From: an uncultured Gammaproteobacteria bacterium
GTDB taxonomy: Bacteria; Pseudomonadota; Gammaproteobacteria; Thiotrichales; Thiotrichaceae
Length of the DNA: 64,000 bases
Assembly (NCBI GenBank): GCA_963847495.1
Contig: CAWJZX010000013.1
Location: forward strand, 323,716-387,715
Direction: 5' to 3'
Position numbers and translations under genes: made by a program. Below, one piece after another: positions 2,396 through 20,698 of this stretch (its first letter is position 1; every line of letters begins with the position of its first letter). The notes under the pieces are model-generated. The model did no database searches. It was not told the DNA's origin and worked only from the letters and a program-made list of their open reading frames with translations.

Positions 2396-3319
2396 TTAGC
2401 GAATATGCCATAGGCGCTCTGCATTACCATGCGCGATGAGGTGAGCAACTTTAACCGGGAGTTTCCCAAGTGCTGGCTTCCAGAACTTCATTTGTTTTAA
2501 ATAAAAATCGCTCCAGTGCTCAGAAAAAACATTATCTAGTGCAAAAACGAATCTCTCAGGATGTTTAATCAAGAGATTGCGCCACACAGGTGCGAATTGC
2601 TCCCCTTTAAATACGTTTACCCAAGGTTGATTCGAGCTTTTAATGGCTTCAGGATTTGTCCATCCCATATGAAAATACAAGTTTTTATGTCTGTTAATCA
2701 GTCGCCTGGTCTCGTCTGGTTTCAATTGCCCCATGTGAGTAAGTACAAATGGCTGTCTGGAATAGTTATCGAGTAAACTTTCCAATGCATCCATATAGCG
2801 CTTTTTCTTTTCCCCATGCAAGGCACCAAATTCGATATGTATTACAAATGGCCAGCGATTATCAATGGCATATTTAAGCGCGGCAGCGACTCGTTTATCC
2901 TGCGGATAAACCGCATACTCTGGTGCCTTATTACCCTTTTTTGCATGATATAGAAGAATTTCCGCCATGGCAGCGTATTTTCGGCTACCAACCTGAGTCT
3001 TAAGTGAATTGTAGTATTTCTTTGATCCGGCAATATAGGGTTGACCTTTAGTTCTTACTGCTGGCGTTATTTTGTCACGGTGCTTTGATGCGAACTCAAG
3101 AAGATCCTTTCCCTTCAATTGCCCACGGGCAGACAAGATCGTATGTCTTACGCCACCTTGTTTCATAAGGGATATAACTCTGTTCAAGGGAACTACCTTA
3201 TGATCAACTTGACTGTGTGCATCAATAAAATAAAGTGGTTTGCCATGCGCGCTCACCGCAAGGGCCATCGTAATAAGAAACGTGAAAATAACGTCCGACC
3301 TAATTATATATTTAATCAT
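2396..3319 (-). CDS. Secreted amidohydrolase-family (TIM-barrel metal hydrolase) protein
   Basis: The track ORF runs to 3394. The likely start is ATG 3319 (MIKYIIRS..., signal peptide, AAGGA Shine-Dalgarno), just after the stop of the upstream gene at 3327. It has FIDAHSQVDH and HIEFG motifs and is a distant paralog of 47295..48194. Confidence 0.6.
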   Translation of the reverse strand: MIKYIIRSDVIFTFLITMALAVSAHGKPLYFIDAHSQVDHKVVPLNRVISLMKQGGVRHTILSARGQLKGKDLLEFASKHRDKITPAVRTKGQPYIAGSKKYYNSLKTQVGSRKYAAMAEILLYHAKKGNKAPEYAVYPQDKRVAAALKYAIDNRWPFVIHIEFGALHGEKKKRYMDALESLLDNYSRQPFVLTHMGQLKPDETRRLINRHKNLYFHMGWTNPEAIKSSNQPWVNVFKGEQFAPVWRNLLIKHPERFVFALDNVFSEHWSDFYLKQMKFWKPALGKLPVKVAHLIAHGNAERLWHIR

Positions 3320-3326
3320 CCTTGCC

Positions 3327-3623
3327 TCACTTTGATTTTTTGGCTTTGAGCTGACGTAATTTTTTGCGTTCCTGTTTATTAGGCACATGCTCACGAGTAG
3401 CTAATACATCTTTCAACTGTTTGTAAGCCTGTTTCCATTCAGGGCTATCTTTGTATTCGATGATGCCTGTTATAGATGCCGAAGGTTTAGCCTCGTAAAC
3501 GCCATGATCGGAAGCAACGAATGACTCTTCACATTTGAGCAAAGCAACACGGCGGCTCATCAATGTGCCGGTATGCATTTTTTCAAGCACCTCAATCGTT
3601 TTGATTTCAACCTTACTCACCAT
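3327..3623 (-). CDS. Hypothetical 98-aa protein with a lysine-rich C-terminus
   Basis: Intact ORF forming an operon-like pair with the amidohydrolase. A decayed paralog lies at 5344..5618. Confidence 0.5.
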   Translation of the reverse strand: MVSKVEIKTIEVLEKMHTGTLMSRRVALLKCEESFVASDHGVYEAKPSASITGIIEYKDSPEWKQAYKQLKDVLATREHVPNKQERKKLRQLKAKKSK

Positions 3624-3725
3624 TTTTTATTACCGACCAATAAAAATACACACTGAATAGTTTAACGTTTAATTCACATATTAATTAAACATAAGTCAAA
3701 AATGAGTGAGAAAGGTCGTTGAATT

Positions 3726-3757
3726 CACACCCCCCTATTTTTTAGGCGGTTTTTTGC
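3726..3757 (+). repeat. C-box head
   Basis: CACACCCCCCTATTTTTTAGGCGGTTTTTTGC. Confidence 0.8.
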
Positions 3758-3831
3758 TGCAACACATTTTAACAATAAACTGCTTGGCATATTGCCCAAG
3801 TGCATACGGTCTACAAATTAATGTCGCCTGC

Positions 3832-4683
3832 TTAATGCTCCAACAAGCCAAGTAGCACCCGATAATATTCATCAGGGTTTTCTTCCCATGGAAAATGCAC
3901 ACAGCCTGTTAAAACATGGTGTTTAGAGTTATTGAGTAAACGTCTGTACTCACTCAGACTTTCAGGTTGCAACACATCATCACGGCAATGAATCAGACCA
4001 CTTATCTTGTTTGATAGTTGCATGATATCGGCATCAATAAGTGGCGCATTTTTATACTCTTCCCAGATTCTGACATTTAACTTATTATTAATATCCACTT
4101 GCGAAAAATTTAAAGCATAGTCCCACCCTTGTTTAGCATCCGCAAAATAACTGGCAATCTTGCTTCGAAAATTATGAAGCTGTTCTGCAGGTGTACCTAT
4201 ATCATCGAGTGTCAATCTTGAATCAATTTCAGGATGACTATAGAGCTTACTCTCAATATGCTCCATACTGAATAGGGACGGATCAACCGGATTATTTAAT
4301 ACCAGTTTACTCACCCGTTCAGGATGATTTTTAGCAAAGAGCAACACCTGCAAGGCCCCCCATGAGTGCCCCCAAAGCACCACTGGCTCTTTTGGTAACA
4401 CCTCATACATATCTGCAAACCACTGGGACAAGACAGGCTCATCTGGTTTTAAAATTAAGCCCGTATTCTCACCAACACCGCGCATATCCCAGCGGCACAC
4501 CTTGTAATTTTTACTTAATCTTTTTTGTATAGGTTCCAGATTCCAGGTCGTAAACGCAGGCCCTCCTCCAATTAGATAAACCAGAGGACCCTGACCTTCA
4601 CAACTTACCTTGATTTCAGCAGCTGCAATCGAATGGCAGTAAAACAGGATGAATATAAAGAAAAATCTCAAAAAATATTTCAT
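3832..4683 (-). CDS. Secreted alpha/beta hydrolase
   Basis: 283 aa with a signal peptide and the nucleophile elbow GHSWGA. Confidence 0.75.
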   Translation of the reverse strand: MKYFLRFFFIFILFYCHSIAAAEIKVSCEGQGPLVYLIGGGPAFTTWNLEPIQKRLSKNYKVCRWDMRGVGENTGLILKPDEPVLSQWFADMYEVLPKEPVVLWGHSWGALQVLLFAKNHPERVSKLVLNNPVDPSLFSMEHIESKLYSHPEIDSRLTLDDIGTPAEQLHNFRSKIASYFADAKQGWDYALNFSQVDINNKLNVRIWEEYKNAPLIDADIMQLSNKISGLIHCRDDVLQPESLSEYRRLLNNSKHHVLTGCVHFPWEENPDEYYRVLLGLLEH

Positions 4684-7374: not shown

Positions 7375-7461
7375 CAGGCGGAAATTGGATGTATTAATGC
7401 AAGTGGTTGTTATGGCTTGACATTATCGGGGCATCTATATATGTCCAAATTATTTTTTCAG

Positions 7462-7490
7462 TTTTCAATCGAGTCTGCCCCTATTGATAC
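7462..7490 (+). repeat. Module I hairpin (solo)
   Basis: TTCAATCGAGTCTGCCCCTATTGATAC; compare 8990-9018 and 10188-10218. Confidence 0.6.
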
Positions 7491-7707
7491 TGTTTTTATG
7501 CTTTCAAGGAGTCTCTGATCAAGTCGATAGTATTTAAGGGCAGAAAAAAGTGTCTGTAAGTTTCACGAAGTGAGCCGTAATAGTCATTCTGCATTCGCTT
7601 TTAAGTCATTTGCAAGCAAAGCACTAAATATTGTGGCGATCTTCGGGGAAGTTTCAGGCACTTTTAGCTAGCTTAAAATTATTGGACTTGATTAGAGCCT
7701 GCTTAAT

Positions 7708-7762: not shown

Positions 7763-8629
7763 TTAAGCCGCTTTTAGTTGTTTCTCAAAATCATTAGGGC
7801 AGACATAATCCAACGTCGAATGTAAACGAAAGCTGTTATAGAACATGGAAATGTACTGCACTATATCCTGTCTTGCTTCATTTCGGGTTCGGTAGTCATA
7901 CCATTGCACCCGTTCCTGTTTCAAGCTGCCAAAGAAGCTTTCGGCGACAGCATTATCCCAACAATTACCTTTGCGGCTCATGCTGCCTGTGATCTTGTTA
8001 TCCTTTAATAACTGTCTAAAAGCGTCACTGCCATATTGAGAGCCTCGATCCGAATGATGTATTAAGCCTGGCTTTGGTCTTCTTTGCCATAGAGCCATTT
8101 TCAACGCATCACAGACCAGTTTGGCTTTTATCTTTTTGCTTGTACTCCAACCAACGACTTTGCGTGAACAAAGATCAATCACAACAGCCAAATATAACCA
8201 GCCTTCGCCTGTATTGATATAGGTTATATCTGAGACGTAGACCTGATCTCTATCTGATACATTAAATCGGCGCTTGAGGACATTGGGATATACAGGATTC
8301 TGATGGTTACTATCCGTGGTTACCTTGTACTTCTTTTTGCGACGAACGCTGATACCTGCTTCGCACATGAGCTTTCTCACTCTGTTTCGGCTAACAACAT
8401 GGCTCAGGGCATTTAACGCCCTCTTCATCCGACGACTGCCATAGCTAAAGTCCGTTACTATCGCGAGTTCTTTAATCCATTCGAGCATCTCCTGATGCTC
8501 TGCCGTCTTTTGTTTGTTGGCGGTTACCTTGCAGTAATGATAATAGCCTTGACGACTGACACCCAAAACCCGACATTGCAGGCTGACTGGATAGGTATTT
8601 TTATGCTGGGTGATAAACGTGTATTTCAC
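7763..8629 (-). CDS. IS3-family transposase OrfB (DDE integrase core)
   Basis: 288 aa with DDE-region motifs (VSDITYI, HHSDRGSQYGS, NAVAESFF). Confidence 0.9.
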   Translation of the reverse strand: MKYTFITQHKNTYPVSLQCRVLGVSRQGYYHYCKVTANKQKTAEHQEMLEWIKELAIVTDFSYGSRRMKRALNALSHVVSRNRVRKLMCEAGISVRRKKKYKVTTDSNHQNPVYPNVLKRRFNVSDRDQVYVSDITYINTGEGWLYLAVVIDLCSRKVVGWSTSKKIKAKLVCDALKMALWQRRPKPGLIHHSDRGSQYGSDAFRQLLKDNKITGSMSRKGNCWDNAVAESFFGSLKQERVQWYDYRTRNEARQDIVQYISMFYNSFRLHSTLDYVCPNDFEKQLKAA

Positions 8630-8919
8630 TTCGTTTCGTTGGCAAAAAATACCGTCGCTTTTTTTAGGATGTCCCTCTCCATTTCAAGACGCTTGATACG
8701 CGCTTTAAGCTTGCGATTCTCTGATTGTTCTGGACTCAACTTACCTTTGCCGACAAAGGCGTGTTTGTCCTTCTCTTGATATTCTTTGACCCAGCGACTG
8801 AGTGCATTGATACCCACTTCAAGATTAAGTGCAGCCTCTGCTCTTGAGTAACCTTGTTCAAGGACGAGACTCACTGCATCCTGTTTAAATTCTTTAGAAT
8901 AGCTTTTTCTTTTTGTCAT
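8626..8919 (-). CDS. IS3-family transposase OrfA (HTH)
   Basis: 97 aa, MTKRKSYSKEFKQDAV..., with a leucine-zipper-like C-terminus. The slippery sequence A AAA AAG lies at 8658-8666 (minus strand). Confidence 0.9.
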   Translation of the reverse strand: MTKRKSYSKEFKQDAVSLVLEQGYSRAEAALNLEVGINALSRWVKEYQEKDKHAFVGKGKLSPEQSENRKLKARIKRLEMERDILKKATVFFANETK

Positions 8920-8982: not shown

Positions 8983-9018
8983 TTTTTCAAAAATTAATTG
9001 AGTCTGGCCCCATTGATT
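8983..9018 (+). repeat. C-box head T-run plus module I (right part of the element split by the IS3)
   Basis: TTTTTCAAAAATTAATTGAGTCTGGCCCCATTGATT. Confidence 0.7.
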
Positions 9019-9045
9019 GAGCAACCAGTAAAAGACCCCTAAATC

Positions 9046-9921
9046 TTATGAAAAACTAAAAGAACTCAGCCTGCTTCGAATTTTGGATGAAAGCTCTGGA
9101 TTATTAGGCGCCAGCATATTGGTCACATTAACGATCATTTCACGCGCCGCATTATCTTTATAGTTTGAATCTATTCTCATGATTTCAAACAGGTGATCTA
9201 CCGCCTGCTCATAGTCTCTGTCTGCAATCAGGCAAACGGCCAGATCGAAATGCACATCACAATTATTGGGGTTAGTTAACAATGACTGCTGTAGCTGGAA
9301 TTTACCCGGTGTTTTTGCGGCTAAATCCAGAAAGGTTAACTGTCCTATCAACGATTTACCCATGTCGGTCTTCTTTGCAGAATCGGGTAATTGATTAAAC
9401 AGACTGTTAGCCTGATCAAGCTCGTTCAAATCAATAAAGATTTGAGCCATATCCATCGCAATTTTGGTATTTGATGGATCTTGTTGGATAGCCTGAGTCA
9501 GTAATTGAATAGCGGCTACAGTATCAGCCTTCATGTGCTTTTCACGTGCTTCCAGACGCATTTCGTCTGCCTGCGAATACACACCAAATTCTTTTAACAC
9601 ATCACGTAATTCGTTTTGCTTCAGTAAGCCTTCTTCCGATTTAACCACCTCGCCATTCTTAAATACCTTTAAGCTCGGTACGTTTTCAATCGCGTATTGT
9701 TCCTTCAGCTCAGGCTGTTCATCAATATCGACTTTGGCAAAAATAAACTGCCCTGCAAATTCTTTAGCAAGAATCGATAGCTCATCCGACATTTGAAAAC
9801 ACGGCCCAGACCAGACACCCATAAACTCAACCAAAACAGGTAGTTTGTGTGAATTCTGGATAACTGCATAATCAAAATTCTGTTTGGAAACTTCGAAAAT
9901 GAAAACTTCACTATTACTCAC
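9046..9921 (-). CDS. Thioredoxin-domain plus TPR co-chaperone (YbbN/CnoX-like)
   Basis: 291 aa with an N-terminal thioredoxin fold (VLVEFMGVWSGPC) and a C-terminal TPR region. Confidence 0.75.
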   Translation of the reverse strand: MSNSEVFIFEVSKQNFDYAVIQNSHKLPVLVEFMGVWSGPCFQMSDELSILAKEFAGQFIFAKVDIDEQPELKEQYAIENVPSLKVFKNGEVVKSEEGLLKQNELRDVLKEFGVYSQADEMRLEAREKHMKADTVAAIQLLTQAIQQDPSNTKIAMDMAQIFIDLNELDQANSLFNQLPDSAKKTDMGKSLIGQLTFLDLAAKTPGKFQLQQSLLTNPNNCDVHFDLAVCLIADRDYEQAVDHLFEIMRIDSNYKDNAAREMIVNVTNMLAPNNPELSSKIRSRLSSFSFS

Positions 9922-9980
9922 AATCTCAATCCTTGTATGGACATGACGGAAACAGGAATAATCGCTTATTTATGTAAACG

Positions 9981-10062
9981 GTGCTATATCACTTTGTAGA
10001 CAAGTGAATCGAGGTTGGTATATTTATTCTTAAGTCACCCCCCTACTTTTAGGCACTTTTTA
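9981..10062 (+). repeat. Module J plus I-like segment plus C-box head
   Basis: GTGCTATATCACTTTGTAGACAAGTGAATCGAG...GTCACCCCCCTACTTTTAGGCACTTTTT. Module J is repeated at 17051-17083. Confidence 0.8.
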
Positions 10063-10085
10063 ATAGAATATAAATACCAACATCC

Positions 10086-10218
10086 CTTATTTCGACCACA
10101 TCGACGATTCCTTGCAGAATCTACGATGGACTTTCTTGGCTCTTGGTGAGCCTAAGAAAGACACCCCCTACCTTTTTAGCACTTTTCCATAAATCAATCG
10201 AGTCTGACCTCATTGATT
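10086..10218 (+). repeat. Module D plus C-box head plus module I
   Basis: TTTCGACCACATCGACG..GAATCTACGATGGACTTTCTTGGCTCTTGGTGAGCCTAAGAAAGACACCCCCTACCTTTTTAGCACTTTT..AATCAATCGAGTCTGACCTCATTGATT. The right arm overlaps the stop of ORF 10210. Confidence 0.85.
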
Positions 10219-10953
10219 CTTTCCCTGGACATTGAAACCACCAAGTATTGAATAAAAATCCGATAAATCGATTTCGCGTTTGTCTGCCAGGGGTTTAACT
10301 TCAGAATAAAGAAATGAATAAAATATGTTTTTTTCTTTAAAGTCTGATGGGAAATAAATATATAAATAGCCATGGCCAACATGTGAGTCTTTATACTGTC
10401 TGTACGTCTTGTACGTCATTGTGTAGAAGTGTTTATTATGTATATTAGTTTCTGACTTTTTTACATCTTTTAATTGATACATCCCCTTCATGACACCCTG
10501 CGCAATCATGTTGGATTCTTCGCCCTTACGGAAGTTATCAGCTACCCAGCGTTCAGAATGCATACCTCCGTAAATACGTGATGCATCCTTCTCAATAACA
10601 ACGATTGCTCTTGAAACGGTGGGTTGCCATCCCTTTTTCTCTACCTGTTTAAATTCCACCACCTGGTGCTGTGGAAATGTCTTTAAATCCCAATCACGGC
10701 CTAGATTGTTCTCTACTGTATAGCGTTTCATCTTGATTGTTGCACCAGAGCGTTTTTGTTGCACTTTTTCAGACTTTTTTTTCTCTGCGATTTGGGTTCC
10801 AAATGCCCCACTTCCATGCCGGTGCTTAATACCTTCTTTTGGTAAAGGATGGCTATGTACTCTTCCTGCATGAGAATGTGTCACACTCTTGGTTTTTGCC
10901 CACCCTGATACAGAAAGTAAAAGGGCCAGTATAATTACACTAGTTTTTATCAT
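10210..10953 (-). CDS. Secreted protein with an N-terminal His-rich module (paralog P1)
   Basis: Signal peptide followed by SVTHSHAGRVHSHPLPKEGIKHRHGSGAFG. The C-terminal domain is unrelated to P2 and P3. Confidence 0.7.
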   Translation of the reverse strand: MIKTSVIILALLLSVSGWAKTKSVTHSHAGRVHSHPLPKEGIKHRHGSGAFGTQIAEKKKSEKVQQKRSGATIKMKRYTVENNLGRDWDLKTFPQHQVVEFKQVEKKGWQPTVSRAIVVIEKDASRIYGGMHSERWVADNFRKGEESNMIAQGVMKGMYQLKDVKKSETNIHNKHFYTMTYKTYRQYKDSHVGHGYLYIYFPSDFKEKNIFYSFLYSEVKPLADKREIDLSDFYSILGGFNVQGKNQ

Positions 10954-11020
10954 TTTGAGTTTTCCACTTTTTTATGAGACGGGAATTACTATAGCTTTTA
11001 GCTGTGCATCTACTCCTCTG

Positions 11021-11848
11021 TCAGTCCATCATGGCATTGATATCACGTAGCATCTTGTTGGCACGTTCCAGAAGCACTGTGTCACCTACGTTGATATTGT
11101 TTTTGAGTATGCATTTGATTTTAAGAACACCACCTTCTTCATTTATTGTTTTGCGTATGCCGCGCCCCAAGTGTTCACCTTTATCAATCTTTCCATCCTT
11201 GTTAATGTCATACAGCCACGCAGTTACTCCTCCACCCAGGTTTTTGTCCTGATTCAGGTCAACATCAGGATAAACCCAAATATCAATCTTTCCATCGTAA
11301 TCCGAGTCAATCAGGTGATGGAATGTCCATACAAGCTTGAAGGTGGGCTTTGTGGTGAATAAACTCCCCTGGTAGTAAACAAGATAATCAGCTTTACCAT
11401 CGTTATTGCGATCGAAAATAAAACCGAAATCCATCTTTGCGGCTCCGGTTTCCGGGGAATAAGAAAATTGGTCAGGACGTTTATCACCGTTGATATCGAT
11501 GAGCTTTAGAATGGGATAGTTCTTAAATGTCCTGGTTCTTGAGGATTTCAAAACTACTCGCGTACGCTATTTCCAAAGCTGCCTGGCGCGTTTATCAAGA
11601 GCATTATAGGTATCTAGATTGCGTTTAATGCGACCAGTTTCAGATTGCCTCGATTTAGCCTGCTTTTTCTCAGATTTTACGGTTACAGGTACACCAAACG
11701 CCCCTCCTCCATACTGATGCCTAATGCCTTGTTTCGGTAAAGGATGGCTATGTACTCTTCCTGCATGAGAATGTGTCACACTCTTGGCCTGTGCCCACCC
11801 TGATACAGAAAGTAAAAGGGCCAATATAATTACACTGTATTTTATCAT
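11021..11848 (-). pseudogene. His-rich-module paralog P2, interrupted by one in-frame TAG; C-terminal Dx[DN]xDG calcium-binding-type repeats
   Basis: Track ORFs 11567..11848 and 11021..11551 are in the same frame (276 codons in total). They are separated only by a TAG at 11567-11569 (...RARQLWK*RTRVVLKSS...). Repeats present: DINGDKRPD, DRNNDGKADY, DSDYDGKIDIW, DINKDGKIDKGE. Confidence 0.7.
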
Positions 11849-12026
11849 GTTGAATTCTCCGCTTTTTTATTAAATACACCCGACATCATTCCTGGATCTA
11901 ACGCTCTGTCTAATGTGGTGCGTAACGAGTCAATTGGAGCCCGCTGAGTTCACCGCTAATGGGAGCGAAGTGTCCTTCTGACAGGCATTGTGTTATGCTT
12001 TTTTTTGATCCTGGTCTAATAAGCGT

Positions 12027-12779
12027 TCATTTCTTTTTCTTTAGCTCACGGACTCTTTGACGGTAGACATCTGGATTATCCGTAACAGATATTGATTTTA
12101 TAATTTGTAGCGCCATATCGTGACCATTGGTCAAGTGGCTTGCCGTTATTACTGCCACCCAGTCAGGTTTTACCTCCACAAAATACCTAATAACCTCAGC
12201 TATATACCTCTTTCCACCACGCGTAAAATTCCATCGACCTATCCACTTTATAGAACCCGAATAGTTAGATTTAAAAGGCACCACTTTAGAACTATCGGCT
12301 GGCTTCCCATGCCTTTTCTCGTTGAATATTACGGTCGCAGACACAGCACGAGCCAATAAGTCTTTACCTTGATACCCCTTAACATCTGTTCCTGGACCCA
12401 GCGAAACACCTGCCTGTTTTTTGCGGTCAGTTGATGTCAGCAAACCTGTTTGATTTGTACGCTGCCACATTCCAGGCAACGAGAAACTAAAACTAAGCAG
12501 ATTTTTGTTGATTTCAAAATAATAAGTCCGATTCTCGCTTGGGATAGGAATAACAGCCGTTTCACTATATCGAATTGGCCCACTCTTTATAGATGGAGCA
12601 GAAGCTACATCTCCACCCGGAACAGCCAAACCAATAGCCCCACCCCCATGCCGGTGCTTAATGCCTTCTTTTGGTAATGGATGAGAATGTTCTCTACCTC
12701 CATGAGTATGAGGTACTGGAGCAGCATAAATAATTGTGCAACATAAGCTTATCAATATTAAAGCTATTAGATTATTCAT
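12027..12779 (-). CDS. Secreted protein with an N-terminal His-rich module (paralog P3)
   Basis: Signal peptide followed by PVPHTHGGREHSHPLPKEGIKHRHGGGAIG, then a distinct C-terminal domain. Confidence 0.7.
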   Translation of the reverse strand: MNNLIALILISLCCTIIYAAPVPHTHGGREHSHPLPKEGIKHRHGGGAIGLAVPGGDVASAPSIKSGPIRYSETAVIPIPSENRTYYFEINKNLLSFSFSLPGMWQRTNQTGLLTSTDRKKQAGVSLGPGTDVKGYQGKDLLARAVSATVIFNEKRHGKPADSSKVVPFKSNYSGSIKWIGRWNFTRGGKRYIAEVIRYFVEVKPDWVAVITASHLTNGHDMALQIIKSISVTDNPDVYRQRVRELKKKK

Positions 12780-12968
12780 TTTATTCCCCTTTAGAAAAAC
12801 GATTGTTTCACAATTACATACAAATTTAAGTTGGAAAGTAACATGTGATTAACCCTATCAAACAAAAGGAGCGATAAATTAGACAAATATCAATAATAAT
12901 CAAATTAATTGAATAAAAACATGAGAAAGAGTAACTTAGGTAGAGTTATTAAAAATTTTTCAAGTAAT

Positions 12969-13190
12969 TTATTTACAGTGCTGTCCAATCCGCGTGGCCT
13001 GCACAGCCTCAGTCTTAATCCCATCCGCCAAAACCGTTTCACTCGCCACAATATCTACCTTCTGTTTGGCTCGCGTTATTCCCGTATAAATCAACTGTCT
13101 TGTGAGTAATGGCATGACTTCATGTGGCAGTATCAATGCAACTTAGTCAAATTCTGAACCCTGGCTTTTGTGGATGGTCATTGCCCATGT
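12969..13190 (-). pseudogene. 3' remnant of a second recD copy
   Basis: Translation is TWAMTIHKSQGSEFD*VALILPHEVMPLLTRQLIYTGITRAKQKVDIVASETVLADGIKTEAVQATRIGQHCK*. It closely parallels the RecD C-terminus at 18815..19040. There is an in-frame TAA at 13143-13145, and similarity is lost above about 13190. Confidence 0.8.
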
Positions 13191-13318
13191 GTATAAGCGG
13201 GGTCAGCGTAAACTTTAATACCTTGCTTTGCAGATAAATATTATTGGCAAGGAGGCTGTCGTACTGATAGATTTATAGCTGTATCTTTTAATGCTGTCGC
13301 ATTTTGTACTTAAAAAAA

Positions 13319-13530
13319 GACACCCCCCTACTTTTAAGTGATTTTTATGCGGCTGCGCCTTCCCTACGGGTCAGCATTAAACGACAATGCTTTTGTCTCG
13401 ATAAATCTCGGCTCGTTTTTGTTCTTTAAAAACGTAAATAGAATTTATGCAGAGCTGAGGCGGTTTTTATGCGGCTGCGCCTTTACTTCAGATCAACTTT
13501 AAAATAACAGTCTTGTTGTTTCACTATGTC
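13319..13530 (+). repeat. C-box head plus module B plus tail-like segment plus a second partial B
   Basis: GACACCCCCCTACTTTTAAGTGATTTTTATGCGGCTGCGCCTTCCCTACGGGTCAGCATTAAACGACAATGC...TTATGCAGAGCTGAGGCGGTTTTTATGCGGCTGCGCC... Confidence 0.85.
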
Positions 13531-13532
13531 GG

Positions 13533-13703
13533 CTAGTCTTTTTTGTCAATTGTGATCTCAATAGACTTGCTATCACCCGCAAACCACTTCTGAACATACA
13601 AAGAACCCACGATAGGTGCGGTTCCTTCATCAGGGACTTCCTTATAGCGAACACTGTTTTTTGTTTCTTTCTCGTATTGAAACTTTACTACTTTCTTTGA
13701 CAT
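13533..13703 (-). CDS. Small hypothetical protein (56 aa), below the track cutoff
   Basis: MSKKVVKFQYEKETKNSVRYKEVPDEGTAPIVGSLYVQKWFAGDSKSIEITIDKKD. Its 5' end and upstream region are duplicated at 15609-15673. Confidence 0.4.
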   Translation of the reverse strand: MSKKVVKFQYEKETKNSVRYKEVPDEGTAPIVGSLYVQKWFAGDSKSIEITIDKKD

Positions 13704-13748
13704 AGAATTTTCTCGCTAAACACTTTTATTTTGACTAATCATAATTGC

Positions 13749-13836
13749 AGGTCGGATAAGCATAGCGCCATCCGACATGACCATGATTGATACCACACAA
13801 ATGTCGGATGGCGTACCTTATCCGACCTACCGCGCT
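13749..13836. repeat. REP-like palindromic doublet
   Basis: AGGTCGGATAAG..CGCCATCCGACAT - loop - ATGTCGGATGGCG..CTTATCCGACCTAC. It resembles enterobacterial REP (…CTTATCCGGCCTAC). Confidence 0.8.
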
Positions 13837-13842
13837 AATTAT

Positions 13843-15357
13843 CTAAAAAAATGGCACCAAAGTTAACTTAGAATAATCAAGGTATTGCAGTGGGTTAGCT
13901 TGCAAACCTGTATTTTCATAAAATCGACTTAAATCATTTGAACTTGAAGCTGCCTCTATTGCTTCTCGTTTTGTTGCTGATTCAATTGCCTGCCTCATTG
14001 TAATAATTGTTTTGTCATAGTCTGGTTTATAGCTGTTTATATTATTCATATTTTGGCAATTCGACATATTCTTAAATTCAAATTCATTTGCCACATTGCC
14101 CAGTATTTGACAGTTTCTATTATCAAATACTTTTATTGAACCCGATGCTTGTCGACTGTTTTTTCCTTGATCTACCAATAACACAAAATTACCTGCAACC
14201 ACATTATCAATCCCTCTGGAGAGCGTAATGCCGTGATGTTGATTAGATGCACAGAAATTATTTATTATCTTTATGTTCGCGTATGGCAAAGATCTAAATC
14301 TAAAAAATGAATCGCCTTTTTCATCTCGAGTAAAAAAGCACTGCCAACCTGTTAAATTGGGATTAGTTAAAGGCGTATCACCCACGAGCGAAATATTATT
14401 ACGAATAGTTACATTTGTGTTGCTGCGCTTCATTTTAGTCGTATATAGCTGGATCATATCGCTATGAACATACTTTATTTTGCGAAAGCGTTGTTTATAA
14501 AAAACAGGGGTTCTGGTATGCATTAAATTTGAATCAAATAATGCGTTATTGATACCACCACCAGAAAACATATCGCTAGCCACTCTGATTGCTTTATTGG
14601 CTATCGCATAAAATGAATTCATTTCATTAAACTCAACCGCATGAAATAAATCGGTAAAAAGCGTCCTATCAATAATGATGTTATTACTTTGTTTGATAAG
14701 CAGACCTGACTGGCTGGCCAAAATCGCATCTATATTTCCGCGTTTTAACGCGGTTAAATTATTTTTTTTATCACTAAAATGCAAATTGCTTAAACGAACG
14801 TTATTTGAACTCCTAATCTGCCATGAGTAATTGTTTCGAGAGGTACCCCATAAATTGTTTATCTTAAAATGACTGATGGTTACATTGTGTAGGTTCTCCC
14901 ATGTTATGTTTTCAAAAAATGGAGCCTGATTTTCACCTAACATACCAAGAATAAGCACTGGTTCATCAAAACGATGCTTTTGTTTGTAATGATAACGCTT
15001 ATCTCTGAGGTTGCTTCTTACTACAATAATCTCGCCACCAGTGGCGTTATCTAGAACCTCAGACAGTTGCTTAAAATTAAAAACGTTGAACACTATATTG
15101 TTATCTATAATTTCAGCAGGATTAATTTTAATAAGCTTGCTTGAAGATAAACTTGGCATCTCAATTTGAAATTGAGAGTTATCCTTAGCAAAGGACACAA
15201 ATTCCTCTGCATAACAGTGGCTATTTGTGATAAATAAAAATATTAAAAGAATGTAGTTAGCAATTTTTAAGTGAGGAAATAAGTGATTCAAACTGCTTTG
15301 TTGATTGTTTTTATTATTAAAGCCTGACCTTCTTTTCATTATAATATTTTCCTTCAA
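13843..15357 (-). CDS. Parallel beta-helix repeat protein, visibly very AT-rich
   Basis: 504 aa with an N-terminal hydrophobic segment and repeated N-rich turns (IRSSNNVRLSNLHF, IKQSNNIIIDRTLF, NVTIRNNISL) typical of right-handed beta-helix proteins. Confidence 0.6.
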   Translation of the reverse strand: MKENIIMKRRSGFNNKNNQQSSLNHLFPHLKIANYILLIFLFITNSHCYAEEFVSFAKDNSQFQIEMPSLSSSKLIKINPAEIIDNNIVFNVFNFKQLSEVLDNATGGEIIVVRSNLRDKRYHYKQKHRFDEPVLILGMLGENQAPFFENITWENLHNVTISHFKINNLWGTSRNNYSWQIRSSNNVRLSNLHFSDKKNNLTALKRGNIDAILASQSGLLIKQSNNIIIDRTLFTDLFHAVEFNEMNSFYAIANKAIRVASDMFSGGGINNALFDSNLMHTRTPVFYKQRFRKIKYVHSDMIQLYTTKMKRSNTNVTIRNNISLVGDTPLTNPNLTGWQCFFTRDEKGDSFFRFRSLPYANIKIINNFCASNQHHGITLSRGIDNVVAGNFVLLVDQGKNSRQASGSIKVFDNRNCQILGNVANEFEFKNMSNCQNMNNINSYKPDYDKTIITMRQAIESATKREAIEAASSSNDLSRFYENTGLQANPLQYLDYSKLTLVPFF

Positions 15358-15534
15358 CCCTGTAGAAACTTAAAAGACCTTACTCGAAGCAAAACCAATC
15401 CAACAATCCTAGCAATTTTTAAAAAAAGTATTAGAATATTTTACAAAAAGCCGTAAAAAATGTGCTTTCCTACTAAAAATTAAGTTATAAAAGTATTTAC
15501 TGGAGACCTCAGTATAACTAACGACTAATTAAGC

Positions 15535-15608
15535 AGAGCGCCATCCGACATGACCATGATTGACCTCAAACAATTGTCGGATGACGTAACCTTATCCGAC
15601 CTACCGCG
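15535..15608. repeat. REP-like palindrome (partial doublet), a direct repeat of 13765-13838
   Basis: GCGCCATCCGACATGACCATGATTGA...TTGTCGGATGACG..CTTATCCGACCTACCGCGCT. Confidence 0.8.
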
Positions 15609-15673
15609 CTACTTTCTTTGACATAGAATTTTCCCGCTAAACACTTTTATTTTGACTAAACACAATTGTAGGT

Positions 15674-17041
15674 TGATGAAATGGTCTCCTCCCCTTAATT
15701 CGGCATCTAAGTACCATAATTGGAGATGAAATATTTCCCAATTAAACAAAGAAGGAGACCACCATGAATATTAGCGCCATCGGGCTAGATATTGCAAAAC
15801 AGATTTTTCACCTTGTAGGCTTAGATGATCAAGGCAATCAAGTACTAAAGAAAACTCTTCGACGAACAAAGTTATTAGCTTACTTTGCTAACCTTAACCC
15901 CTGTGTTATTGGCATAGAAGGTTGTGCAAGTTCACATTATTGGGCACGTGAGCTGAATAAGCTCGGACATCAAGTTAAGCTACTTCCAGCACACTATGTA
16001 AAACCTTATGTTCGAGGTAACAAAAATGATTATAACGATGCTTTAGCCATTGCTGAGGCATGTCGAATTCCTGAAATGCGAGAAGTCAGAACTAAAACTG
16101 TTGAACAGCAAAGCATACAAGCCATGCACCGTTTTCGTCGAGGAGCGGTTGCAGATAGAACAAAGCTTTGTAATCAGGTACGCGGGTTACTTGCCGAGTT
16201 TGGTATTGTTATCAAACAAGGTATCAGCTCTTTGAGAAAGAAGCTCCCAGAAATACTCGAAGATGGAGAAAACCAATTACACTGGATGTTTCGAGATGCA
16301 TTAGCTCTAAAATACAGACAACTATGCGAACTTGATGAATTGGTGAAAGAGCTAACCATCATGATTGAGAGAGAAGCCAAACAACATCTGCAAATCAAAC
16401 AATTGCAAAGTATTCCAGGGTTTGGGGCAATTGTAGCAAGTACCTTCTTTAGCGTGATTGGTGATGGAAAGACTTTTAGCAAAGGCAGAGATGTATCTGC
16501 ATCATTGGGATTGGTGCCACGGCAACACAGTAGTGGAGGTAAAAACATCCTGCTGGGTATTAGTAAACGAGGTGATAAATATCTACGAAGCCTTTTAGTT
16601 CATGGAGCTAGATCAGTTGTGAATCACGCCCATAAGAAAGATGATGCACTGAGTCTTTGGGTTACTCGTTTAGTAAAAACACGAGGAAAGAATAAAGCCA
16701 CGGTTGCTCTTGCGAATAAACTGGCAAGAATTGCATGGGCAGTAACCATTAGCGGTAAGCCATACCAAAGAAATTTTGTGATTTAAAGAAAGTAGTAGAA
16801 ATAAACACATCAACGATTTGCGAGAGACAACAAGTAACGATGACATTATAGGTAAGACCGACATACTGAAACCTGCCTCATCCGAAGGATAGTAAATCCG
16901 ATAGGTCGATTAGGACAGTATGTGCAGACTTCATCAAGGCTCGGGATCTAAAACAATCCTATTATGAAGCCGGATATACGAAAGCAAATCTATCCCTGTC
17001 AATATTACACGTTGTCTTGCAAAAATGGAGGAGACCATATA
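15674..17041 (+). mobile_element. IS110-family element of the IS1111 type, inserted in a REP-like arm
   Basis: It interrupts AATTGTAGGT|CGGATAAG (the intact version is at 13744-13760). Subterminal inverted repeats are ATGGTCTCCTCC (15681-15692) and GGAGGAGACCAT (17027-17038). The 5' lead is short (about 90 nt) and the 3' non-coding tail is long (about 255 nt). Confidence 0.85.
15764..16786 (+). CDS. IS110-family (DEDD) transposase
   Basis: 340 aa with GLDIAKQ, GIEGCASSHYW, KNDYNDALAI and C-terminal IPGFGAIVAS motifs. Confidence 0.92.
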   Translation: MNISAIGLDIAKQIFHLVGLDDQGNQVLKKTLRRTKLLAYFANLNPCVIGIEGCASSHYWARELNKLGHQVKLLPAHYVKPYVRGNKNDYNDALAIAEACRIPEMREVRTKTVEQQSIQAMHRFRRGAVADRTKLCNQVRGLLAEFGIVIKQGISSLRKKLPEILEDGENQLHWMFRDALALKYRQLCELDELVKELTIMIEREAKQHLQIKQLQSIPGFGAIVASTFFSVIGDGKTFSKGRDVSASLGLVPRQHSSGGKNILLGISKRGDKYLRSLLVHGARSVVNHAHKKDDALSLWVTRLVKTRGKNKATVALANKLARIAWAVTISGKPYQRNFVI

Positions 17042-18828: not shown

Positions 18829-20698
18829 TCTGCACTTCAATCCTCGTAGCTTTAACCACATCTGCCTTAACCCCAGCCACCAAAACAGCTTCACTCGCCA
18901 CTATATCGACTTTCTGTTTGGCCCGCGTTATTCCGGTATATATTAATTGTCTTGTTAGCAGTGGCATTTCTTCGTGCGGCAAGATCAAAACCACTTGATT
19001 GAATTCTGAGCCTTGGCTTTTGTGAATAGTCATTGCCCATGTGGTTTCGTGCGCTGGCAGTCGTACTGGGGAGAATGCTTTGAACTCGCCTTCAGCTGCA
19101 GGAAAAAACACTTTTACTTCACCATTTTCAATCAGTGTGATTCCGGTATCGCCATTGAACAGGCCTTTGTTGTAGCTGTTCCGGGTGATCATGATCGGGC
19201 GGCCGTGATACCAGTTAGAGGACAAGCTCTGAGTCTGGCTAGTAGAACGCCTGATTCTGATTAAATCCTGTTTGGCTAGTGCAGTTTCGATGCGTTGGTT
19301 CATTAACACACTGCCGTTTAAGCCACGGCGTAAGGCGCACAGGATTCGGTATTGATTGAAAGTCTCGAAGATTTGTTCGTGAGTCGATGCAGGATTATTC
19401 AGCACTTCAAAATAATGTACCCAGGGTTTTATGAGTTCAGCATCGCGCATCGCTTCTGGTGCGATCAGTTTACAGCCAGTGCGGTTTTGATCTTTTAAAA
19501 CGCTGAGTAAGGTCGCGCTATCGCCTTGATTGGCGGCTATCGCTAACTGGCCGATATCGCTGTCTTCCGAGAAGCGCCAGTTCTTTTTCAAGGTAACGAG
19601 ATGCTCTGATTCTTCCAGACCGGCACAGACATCAGAAAATACCGAACCTGTTTCAACAGACGAGAGCTGGTCCTTATCACCAATCAGAATCAGTTTAGCG
19701 TTTGGCGGAACGGATTCTAGCAGTTTTGACATCAGCGCGATATCGATCATCGAGGCTTCATCCACCAGCACCACATCGGCATTCAAGGGGTTTTGAGCAT
19801 TGTGTTTGAATTGCACGCTACCGCGTTGATAACCCAGAAGTTTATGGATCGTGTTAGCCTCAGTCGGCATCTGCTGTAATAACTCATCGGATAAACCAAG
19901 TTTGCTTTGCAAGGCATTTGTTTCAAGCCGTATCGAGTCCAGCATGCGAATCGCTGCTTTACCCGTTGGCGCGGCTAACAGGATGTTTAAATGTTTGTTC
20001 TTATCAATATTTGAGTCTGAAAGGACACCCCCCCACTTTTTACTCGTTTTTTGCAAAAACTCGCCCTTCGGGCTAGCTAAAGCAGTTGTCTCGCTAACGC
20101 TCGGCTGACCACTTTTTTCAATCAGCAATGCCAGAATGCGAGTAATCGTAGTGGTCTTACCCGTACCCGGCCCGCCCGAGATAATCAGGAATCGTTTTTC
20201 CAGTGCACGGCTGGCTGCTATCTTTTGCCAGTTAACTGGCAAGCCTTCATCTTCAAAATAAATATCCAGACGCTGTTGTGCCCAGTCTTTTTGCTCTTGC
20301 TGATCAGTCCCCTCAGCCTCAGGAAACATTCTGGATTTAATCTGATCCGCCAGACGCTGTTGATATTGCCAGTAACGGCGCAGGTACAAATAGCCCTGAT
20401 CAATAATCAGCGGTTTGTAATCCCCTGCTTCGCCCACTACTTTGGTTTGCAATAATTCGACTTGCTGTTCATCCGTTATGGCAATCGCAATCTGGCCTTC
20501 GCGGGTGTGTTTGCTGATTTCCAGGGTGCAGGCTTTGAGGGTTTTATTCTGTGCCTTGTTTGACTCTTGCAATCCATTTAACTCCTGCATTAAATCAGCA
20601 AGCTGGTAATCGAGCGCTTCATAAGCTGCCGGCTCAGCTTCTATTGTGTCAGGCGCTTGTGTTGATACGGCAAAATCCATTGTGAGTTGTTCAGCCAT
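18815..20698 (-). CDS. recD: Exodeoxyribonuclease V alpha subunit RecD, carrying an in-frame repeat-derived insert
   Basis: 627 aa with Walker A GGPGTGKTTT, then LLAAPTGKAA, and helicase motifs through TIHKSQGSE. The start overlaps the recB stop (ATGGCTGA). Confidence 0.92.
   Translation of the reverse strand: MAEQLTMDFAVSTQAPDTIEAEPAAYEALDYQLADLMQELNGLQESNKAQNKTLKACTLEISKHTREGQIAIAITDEQQVELLQTKVVGEAGDYKPLIIDQGYLYLRRYWQYQQRLADQIKSRMFPEAEGTDQQEQKDWAQQRLDIYFEDEGLPVNWQKIAASRALEKRFLIISGGPGTGKTTTITRILALLIEKSGQPSVSETTALASPKGEFLQKTSKKWGGVLSDSNIDKNKHLNILLAAPTGKAAIRMLDSIRLETNALQSKLGLSDELLQQMPTEANTIHKLLGYQRGSVQFKHNAQNPLNADVVLVDEASMIDIALMSKLLESVPPNAKLILIGDKDQLSSVETGSVFSDVCAGLEESEHLVTLKKNWRFSEDSDIGQLAIAANQGDSATLLSVLKDQNRTGCKLIAPEAMRDAELIKPWVHYFEVLNNPASTHEQIFETFNQYRILCALRRGLNGSVLMNQRIETALAKQDLIRIRRSTSQTQSLSSNWYHGRPIMITRNSYNKGLFNGDTGITLIENGEVKVFFPAAEGEFKAFSPVRLPAHETTWAMTIHKSQGSEFNQVVLILPHEEMPLLTRQLIYTGITRAKQKVDIVASEAVLVAGVKADVVKATRIEVQIKSS
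20024..20119 (+). repeat. C-box head plus F-like module, in frame inside recD
   Basis: GACACCCCCCCACTTTTTACTCGTTTTTTGCAAAAACTCGCCCTTCGGGCTAGC...GTTGTCTCGCTAACGCTCGGCTGACCACTTTTTTC. It is near-collinear with the intergenic copy at 34957-35059. Confidence 0.85.

Follow-up and report, generated by a model that had tools for sequence, protein, structure and literature searches.

A conserved six-histidine module of about 30 residues on exported proteins, seen from a rearranged Thiotrichaceae locus

The window analysed here is a stretch of 64,000 nucleotides (nt) from an uncultured gammaproteobacterium of the Thiotrichaceae (GenBank assembly GCA_963847495.1, contig CAWJZX010000013.1, positions 323,716 to 387,715), and the element in question is a histidine-rich segment of about 30 residues, hereafter called the module, that lies near the start of three adjacent minus-strand genes, P3, P2 and P1. 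A sequence-only reading of the window had listed three open reading frames (ORFs) here, each with a hydrophobic leader and a His-rich motif, and all three were found where it had placed them, with the motif correctly described. P3 (12027-12779) encodes 250 amino acids (aa), comprising its own signal peptide (12723-12779; MNNLIALILISLCCTIIYA in translation, by inspection), a module copy (12630-12716; VPHTHGGREHSHPLPKEGIKHRHGGGAIG) and a C-terminal part of 200 aa. P2 begins as an ORF of 93 aa (P2a, 11567-11848), with a leader, the module (11693-11779) and a Lys-rich linker, that ends at an in-frame TAG; the same frame continues past the TAG as P2b (11021-11566), which holds a part with Dx[DN]xDG loops. 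P1 (10210-10953; 247 aa) consists of a leader (10897-10953; MIKTSVIILALLLSVSGWA), the module (10798-10884), a Lys-rich linker (10744-10797) and a C-terminal domain (10210-10743) with a predicted PsbP/Mog1/Apa/Tsi3-like alpha-beta fold. P1 and P3 look intact.

The motif V-[TP]-H-[ST]-H-x-G-R-x-H-S-H-P-L-P-K-x-G-I-x-H-x-[HY]-G-x-G-A-x-G, a few residues past the leader, is common to all three. Signal peptides of P1-P3 and of the wider family were judged by inspection and a hydrophobicity scan only, and Sec export was assigned where either an n-h-c signal peptide with an AxA-type site or a lipobox was seen. On this basis P1, P2 and P3 are all judged to be exported: their leaders reach a 9-residue Kyte-Doolittle maximum of 3.3 and end in an AxA-like site (...LLLSVSGWA in P1 and P2, ...CCTIIYA in P3), and there is no hydrophobic segment beyond the leader. 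The P2 leader is that of P1 with two changes, and the P3 leader is unrelated to both (at the nt level, 27% identical to that of P1). When the six-frame translation of the window was compared with a profile of 123 module instances taken from other organisms, exactly three sites matched, the modules of P1 (61.1 bits), P3 (55.2 bits) and P2 (54.9 bits); the next best site scored 8.7 bits.

The module recurs far beyond the window, a point that the sequence-only reading had missed. In an exhaustive HMMER search, a profile of the four closest sequences was run against 1.84 billion cluster representatives and returned 139 proteins at an expectation value (E) ≤ 1e-3, 16 of them at E ≤ 1e-10. The pattern HxHxxxxHxH was present in 140/140 proteins examined, which together hold 205 module instances with the consensus [V][T]-H-[ST]-H-x-G-[RK]-x-H-[ST]-H-P-L-P-x-x-G-[ILV]-x-H-x-H-G-x-G-x-x-G (example 30-mer, VTHSHAGRVHSHPLPKEGIKHRHGSGAFG). 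The six His are invariant across these instances, apart from a single Tyr at the sixth His that belongs to P2, and the third HxH stands at a fixed distance in 190/205. Residues other than His were also conserved, among them Gly at position 4 (79%), Arg at 5 (82%), Leu at 11 (91%), Pro at 12 (96%) and the Gly three residues ahead of the third HxH (96%). Together with the fixed spacing, these residues rule out simple His-rich low complexity.

The sequence-only reading had not recognised the motif as a named domain, and this view held. No Pfam-A model covered the module when 136 members were scanned, nor did any in a further Pfam search at E ≤ 10; NCBIfam gave no match, and the module profile matched no PDB sequence at E ≤ 10. 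Foldseek found no match in the PDB for the 38-residue module model, and full-text literature queried with literal motif strings yielded no relevant paper. A word-indexed protein search with a 12-row module alignment also returned no match though true members exist, the index being unsuited to short profiles. A DNA-pattern scan of metagenomes with HSH[AG]GRVHS, which was too narrow, gave four loci, two of them duplicates of genome matches.

A motif scan over one genome per species supplied named carriers. In Cocleimonas flava an internal module copy lies in a lipoprotein-like protein of 486 aa; in two Leucothrix metagenome-assembled genomes (MAGs) a leader and module precede PG_binding_1 and a trypsin-like peptidase; a Thiotrichaceae MAG joins the module to nine Sel1 repeats; and in a Thiolinea MAG and a dolphin-oral proteobacterium the module occurs once or three times in lipoproteins that also have a Pro-rich spacer and end in LysM. 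The named carriers come to seven Thiotrichales-type records. Contigs with module genes span 31-55% GC, and those other than the seven named records 31-36%.

The shared segment is best explained as one copy per gene of an unnamed mini-domain of about 30 residues that folds by itself. It is found at the termini of proteins exported by the Sec route. As a short His-based motif on such proteins it is of a familiar kind, yet none of the described families tested includes it. If this reading is right, three HxH pairs with six invariant His give a 30-residue domain, so far without annotation, a very clean signature, by which a set of exported proteins can be recognised in Thiotrichales and in uncultured relatives. 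A name for the domain would supply a partial annotation for about 140 protein clusters at present called 'hypothetical'.

One module copy is the rule: among the 140 proteins, 105 have one copy, 17 two, 10 three, five four, two five and one six. The first copy begins within 45 residues of the start in 84/140, behind a hydrophobic leader or lipobox, typically 2-7 residues past an AxA-like or otherwise likely cleavage site. A signal-peptide pattern was seen in most members and a lipobox in about 16. In 31 proteins the module is instead the exact C-terminus (...H-R-H-G-N-G-A-I-G-K, then stop), and a stop codon directly after the C-terminal module was confirmed within the contig for three genes (L023, L025). 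Two of the L023 genes are tandem paralogues (1461-2801 and 3112-4437; 446 and 441 aa, no Pfam domain) that both end in the module followed by a stop, so module genes have been duplicated in tandem outside the window as well. In 'double modules' (P0020, P0023, P0030, P0043, P0050 and P0052) a single residue separates the third HxH of one copy from the first HxH of its successor (…H-F-H-K-H-T-H-N-G-R…), which places 12 His in 44 residues, mostly before Sel1 repeats.

The module's partners are periplasmic and cell-envelope domains. Among the 136 members scanned with Pfam, LysM (14), Sel1 (13) and MORN (5) were found, as well as PG_binding_1, PG_binding_2, SPOR, the TonB C-terminal domain, Lcl_C, Excalibur, M48, trypsin-like and caspase peptidases, FGE-sulfatase and the SUEL lectin domain. 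Multi-module LysM lipoproteins in two loci (L006, 3735-6882; L007, 3410-6624) follow surE, pcm and a gene for a VTT-domain protein; they carry 1-3 modules, a Pro-rich spacer and a C-terminal LysM, and no M23/LytM domain. This surE-pcm position is that of nlpD in other Gammaproteobacteria. No recurrent partner gene was found beside six module genes, and none stood next to module genes of different classes.

Past the module the three genes of the window had been said to diverge fully, as was confirmed. Beyond the shared start, P1 and P2 have 27% ungapped nt identity, which is the random level, and homology of the P1 and P3 C-terminal domains was rejected after a profile of the P1 domain was aligned with P3 by hhalign (probability 0.3%). 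When P1 was modelled with its three homologues using AlphaFold, residues 71-247 formed a confident domain, with a predicted local distance difference test (pLDDT) score of about 90, and residues 1-68 were left without a resolved structure. A Foldseek search of the PDB with this domain matched PsbP, Apa, Tsi3, SciW and Mog1 (E 2e-5 to 4e-3), with twelve matches at E ≤ 1e-3 and a probability of 1.00 for the top ones; target-normalised template modelling (TM) scores were 0.43-0.70 at a sequence identity of 7-14%. The domain had no Pfam match and did not fit a PsbP-type sequence profile, and it is thus predicted to be PsbP/Mog1-like at the level of fold only. The likeness to the PsbP/Mog1/Apa/Tsi3 alpha-beta sandwich is of the P1 C-terminal domain and of no other part. 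Only three sequence homologues of it were found among 5.8 billion proteins, and at least one of them (P0003) has its own leader and no module. P3 matched only itself among the same 5.8 billion proteins and had no Pfam, NCBIfam or PDB sequence match.

P2 had been presented as a single ORF with Dx[DN]xDG repeats of a calcium-binding type. The loops are present in P2b (DRNNDG, DSDYDG, DINKDG and DINGD, that is three Dx[DN]xDG and one DxNGD, 30-35 residues apart), but the TAG at 11567-11569 splits them from the leader and module, and P2b has neither a signal peptide nor a Shine-Dalgarno sequence (ribosome-binding site, RBS) of its own. In its loops P2b resembles the DxDxDG calcium sites of EF-hand and FG-GAP-like proteins; it differs in the stop codon ahead of it and in Pfam scores that all lie below gathering. 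FG-GAP_3 reached E = 0.0097, under its gathering score, and comparison with PDB sequences gave weak matches only (best E 0.019). Membership of EF-hand_1 (PF00036) was rejected, since one loop alone scored 20.0 bits, under the cut-off of 25.4. The third HxH of P2 reads HQY (11708-11716), so that of the five or six His counted earlier P2 has five. Given the in-frame nonsense codon and the lost sixth His, P2 is probably a decaying copy that is turning into a pseudogene.

Module shuffling or gene conversion had been proposed from a near-identity of about 115 nt at the start of P1 and P2. The near-identity is real (106/113 nt, 93.8%, from the gene start), and it extends beyond that length. Similarity sets in some 25-40 nt ahead of the ATG and tails off around +150, with sliding identity of 80-100% from -25 to +110, and a repeat search independently picked out the shared 5' cassette (RBS region, signal peptide and module) as a direct repeat of 177 nt, 88% identical, at 10799-10975 in P1 and 11694-11870 in P2, both on the minus strand. 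A metagenomic gene (P0005, on L001) has a leader and module of the P1/P2 type followed by Sel1 repeats; its first 162 nt are 82% identical, and about 70 nt upstream are also common to it. Behind the same cassette there are therefore three 3' parts, PsbP-like in P1, Dx[DN]xDG loops in P2 and Sel1 repeats in P0005. The proposal of shuffling or conversion is borne out by this fusion of one cassette to three unrelated 3' parts with sharp identity boundaries. The P1 domain also occurs without the module, and together these data show a 5' cassette that has come to stand before different 3' parts.

P3 shares less with P1: only 29 module codons are common to both, at 80% nt identity, with eight codon changes that are synonymous only, and a conserved Ser is encoded by TCT in P3 and by AGC in P1. 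These synonymous-only changes and the switch of Ser codon family mean that the peptide, and not just the DNA, has been conserved, a pattern that shows what appears, from the codons, to be selection on the peptide sequence of the module. In the course of events that we propose, the cassette of RBS, leader and module would have been duplicated and then joined by recombination to unrelated 3' coding parts, in a region that holds many insertion sequence (IS) elements, repeats and gene remnants. The window would then be a clear, datable example of a leader-plus-module cassette moving between unrelated genes.

The module alone, modelled with AlphaFold from 125 aligned instances, reached a mean pLDDT of 87, with 20/38 residues at 90 or above. 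The predicted strands VTHSH and RVHSH form a hairpin round an A-G turn, and a third short strand lies in the Gly-rich tail. In this model the first two H-x-H pairs would be the two strands of a beta-hairpin, onto which the third H-x-H and the Gly-rich tail would pack back. From the strand register we infer that His 1, 2, 3 and 4 and the conserved Arg would sit on one face of the hairpin. Cys is otherwise almost absent from the module and occurs in pairs, at (-1,+8) in 3/3 cases and at (3,+24/25) in 5/5 (carriers P0015, P0021, P0028, P0042, P0066, P0069, P0109 and P0123). In the model the first pair would be cross-strand on the non-His face and the second would tie the turn to the tail. This pairing lends independent support to the predicted hairpin, and the pairs fit disulfides and also an oxidising compartment. 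The module is a conserved unit on exported proteins, and probably a folded one.

As to what this unit does, we rank metal binding first, a docking tag second and an anionic ligand or pH sensing third. The sequence-only reading had suggested a module for metal binding or anchoring. For the metal part it finds backing in the six invariant His, the predicted hairpin and one match to a loop of NicO transporters, and none in the surroundings, where no metal-gene neighbours, riboswitch or Fur/Zur box were seen. Belief and doubt are about evenly poised as to whether a divalent transition metal (Zn, Ni, Cu or Co) is bound by the six His that never vary. What speaks for it is that the His are invariant, regularly spaced and clustered by the predicted fold, the analogy to zinc-binding histidine-triad repeats, and the likeness in sequence to the NicO loop. 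The module would then serve in the periplasm to capture metal, or as a unit whose folding depends on metal, and tight binding, if it occurs, would make it a new element of periplasmic metal handling.

The NicO likeness is that of THSHGGRVHSHAMP, which closes a long His/Asp loop in two Poribacteria transporters of the NicO family (L008 6007-6050, whose protein matches Pfam NicO, and L009). It is nearly the first two-thirds of the module, the hairpin half, without the third HxH. Two members of NicO/RcnA (PF03824) thus carry a module-like hairpin at the end of their metal-binding His loop; they differ from the module proteins in having no third HxH or Gly-rich tail and in being polytopic membrane proteins, whereas P1-P3 are without a membrane domain. 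P1-P3 were rejected as members of PF03824, with no NicO match and no hydrophobic segment beyond the leader, and there were no NicO proteins among the 139 profile matches. As support for metal binding the link is weak.

Streptococcal histidine-triad (Pht) repeats (PF04270) each bind one Zn ion, and the module is proposed to work in this way. They resemble the module as short, repeated His motifs in exported lipoproteins or surface proteins, and H-Y-H-Y-I-P-K may be set beside H-S-H-P-L-P-K. The two differ in spacing (HxxHxH in Pht, HxH-x4-HxH-x8-HxH in the module), in hosts (streptococci as against Gram-negative Thiotrichales) and in that most module carriers have one terminal copy. Assignment of the module to PF04270 was rejected, since the motif differs and neither P1-P3 (searched at E ≤ 1) nor six multi-copy proteins (at E ≤ 10) gave a match. 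An amino-terminal Cu(II)- and Ni(II)-binding (ATCUN) site was also rejected: the first His falls at about mature position 5-7 in P1-P3, and the Pro of x-P-H blocks such a site in many relatives.

Several observations weigh against metal binding. No metal-transport or metal-regulation gene recurred beside module genes in the loci read. The window holds no Fur/Zur box consensus at ≤ 3 mismatches and no riboswitch or other Rfam match, either at gathering thresholds or, over 9800-13400, at E ≤ 1. Two other NicO/RcnA-like proteins, found by tblastn against plasmids, are without the motif, and the NicO link may be convergence, given that it concerns a 14-residue stretch in a low-complexity His loop of two related MAGs. 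The geometry proposed for the His is read from strand register only, in a metal-free model. The Cys pairs all come from related LysM lipoproteins and may reflect one or two evolutionary events. Finally, the terminal, single-copy placement of the module on very diverse domains fits a docking or localisation tag at least equally well.

Such a tag, the second reading, would keep exported proteins of diverse kinds at one particular site in the envelope. It would do so through affinity for an envelope component, or by pairing, across a bridging metal, with the multi-copy modules of LysM lipoproteins that are anchored to outer membrane and peptidoglycan, so that the His would serve binding or bridging and not metal handling. 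We regard it as possible, and clearly less probable than metal binding. The strictly terminal position of the module, just past the signal peptide or at the exact C-terminus, is what a tag would look like, as is its single copy in 105/140 proteins on unrelated catalytic or binding domains; proteins that have 3-4 copies lie at the surE-pcm (nlpD) locus and are lipoproteins that end in LysM, the mean net charge of the module is +2.1 with His not counted, and a recurrent metal-gene context is missing. On the other hand, no receptor or partner gene is conserved beside module genes, and a second anchor looks redundant, since the LysM, SPOR and PG_binding partners are anchors themselves. By analogy only, dockerins, LysM, SPOR and SLH are likewise small modules at either end of unrelated exported proteins, with multi-copy versions on anchored, scaffold-like proteins; they have no sequence or fold relation to the module, and its His-based chemistry is unlike any of theirs.

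A more specific version of docking, which we think improbable, would make the module the common element of a metal-bridged periplasmic docking system, a Gram-negative analogue of cohesin-dockerin assembly. Lipoproteins with 3-6 modules, tethered from the outer membrane to peptidoglycan (LysM, nlpD locus), would be the scaffolds; single-module proteins would dock on them by His-metal-His pairing, and the availability of metal would determine how many sites are occupied. Among the proteins so docked would be proteases, lectins, Sel1 and MORN proteins and the products of P1 and P3. If the module does mediate docking, the Gram-negative envelope would be organised in a new way, and the module would be a natural affinity tag of compact size.

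In the third reading the module would bind a non-metal anionic ligand or sense pH through protonatable His together with Lys and Arg, candidate ligands being lipopolysaccharide (LPS) phosphates, polyphosphate and, as the relatives are sulfur oxidisers, periplasmic sulfur or polysulfide. The module is cationic (mean Lys plus Arg 3.0 as against Asp plus Glu 0.85), its named carriers are Thiotrichales (Cocleimonas, Leucothrix and Thiolinea), and DsrE-like and cytochrome c genes are present in the window. Six invariant His at fixed spacing are, however, more typical of a coordination site than of electrostatics, and no link to sulfur-globule or LPS genes was seen in the loci read, which leaves this reading a distinctly unlikely one.

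That the module has no function, and that the likeness stems only from His-rich low complexity or from a 5' gene end recently duplicated or converted within the locus, would suit the 94% identity of P1 and P2 over the first 113 nt, a locus full of IS elements, repeats and a recD remnant, and the probable pseudogene P2, but it is essentially excluded: the motif, spacing and non-His residues recur in 139 clusters from many organisms on contigs of 31-55% GC, with database matches too diverged to be copies of a single sequence, P3 keeps the peptide while differing at synonymous sites and in its leader, and the foreign profile matches only the three window sites, all of them more than 46 bits ahead of any other.

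Directly upstream of P3 lies an orphan 3' fragment of a recD-like gene (12979-13191, minus strand; Pfam UvrD_C_2). Its 55 codons agree with the last part of the intact recD (18831-19043) at 78% of nt and 80% of aa, and because it has diverged to this extent it is not a fresh duplication of the resident gene; the fragment marks the block as a rearranged region. An IS3-family element (7763-8919), made up of overlapping orfA (8626-8919) and orfB (7763-8629), and an IS110-family transposase gene (15764-16786) lie on either side. The window also contains a DsrE-like gene and a cytochrome c gene. A scan for promoters and terminators gave no signal above shuffled controls.

Several repeat families were recorded in and around the block. 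Repeats of about 150 nt (13688-13840 and 15530-15673), 88-96% identical with their segments in different order, flank an ORF of 504 aa (13843-15357) that has a leader-like start and no Pfam match, and an ORF of 56 aa (13533-13703) overlaps the first of them. A 20-nt core, GACACCCCCCTACTTTTAGG, occurs in 11 copies at ≤ 3 mismatches (0 expected), all on the plus strand whatever the gene orientation (10034, 13319, 20778, 40949, 48230, 48970, 52888, 54550, 56539, 57236 and 63047), and with a longer version of 34 nt further copies of 65-76% identity were found at 10154, 17102, 18794 and 20018; the P1-P3 block is flanked by two copies of this type. Lastly, a 38-nt repeat, TTTTTCA...CAATCGAGTCTG.CC..ATTGAT, occurs at 7454-7491, 8983-9020 and 10183-10220, where it brackets the IS3 element and a thioredoxin-TPR gene, and its third copy overlaps the stop codon of P1.

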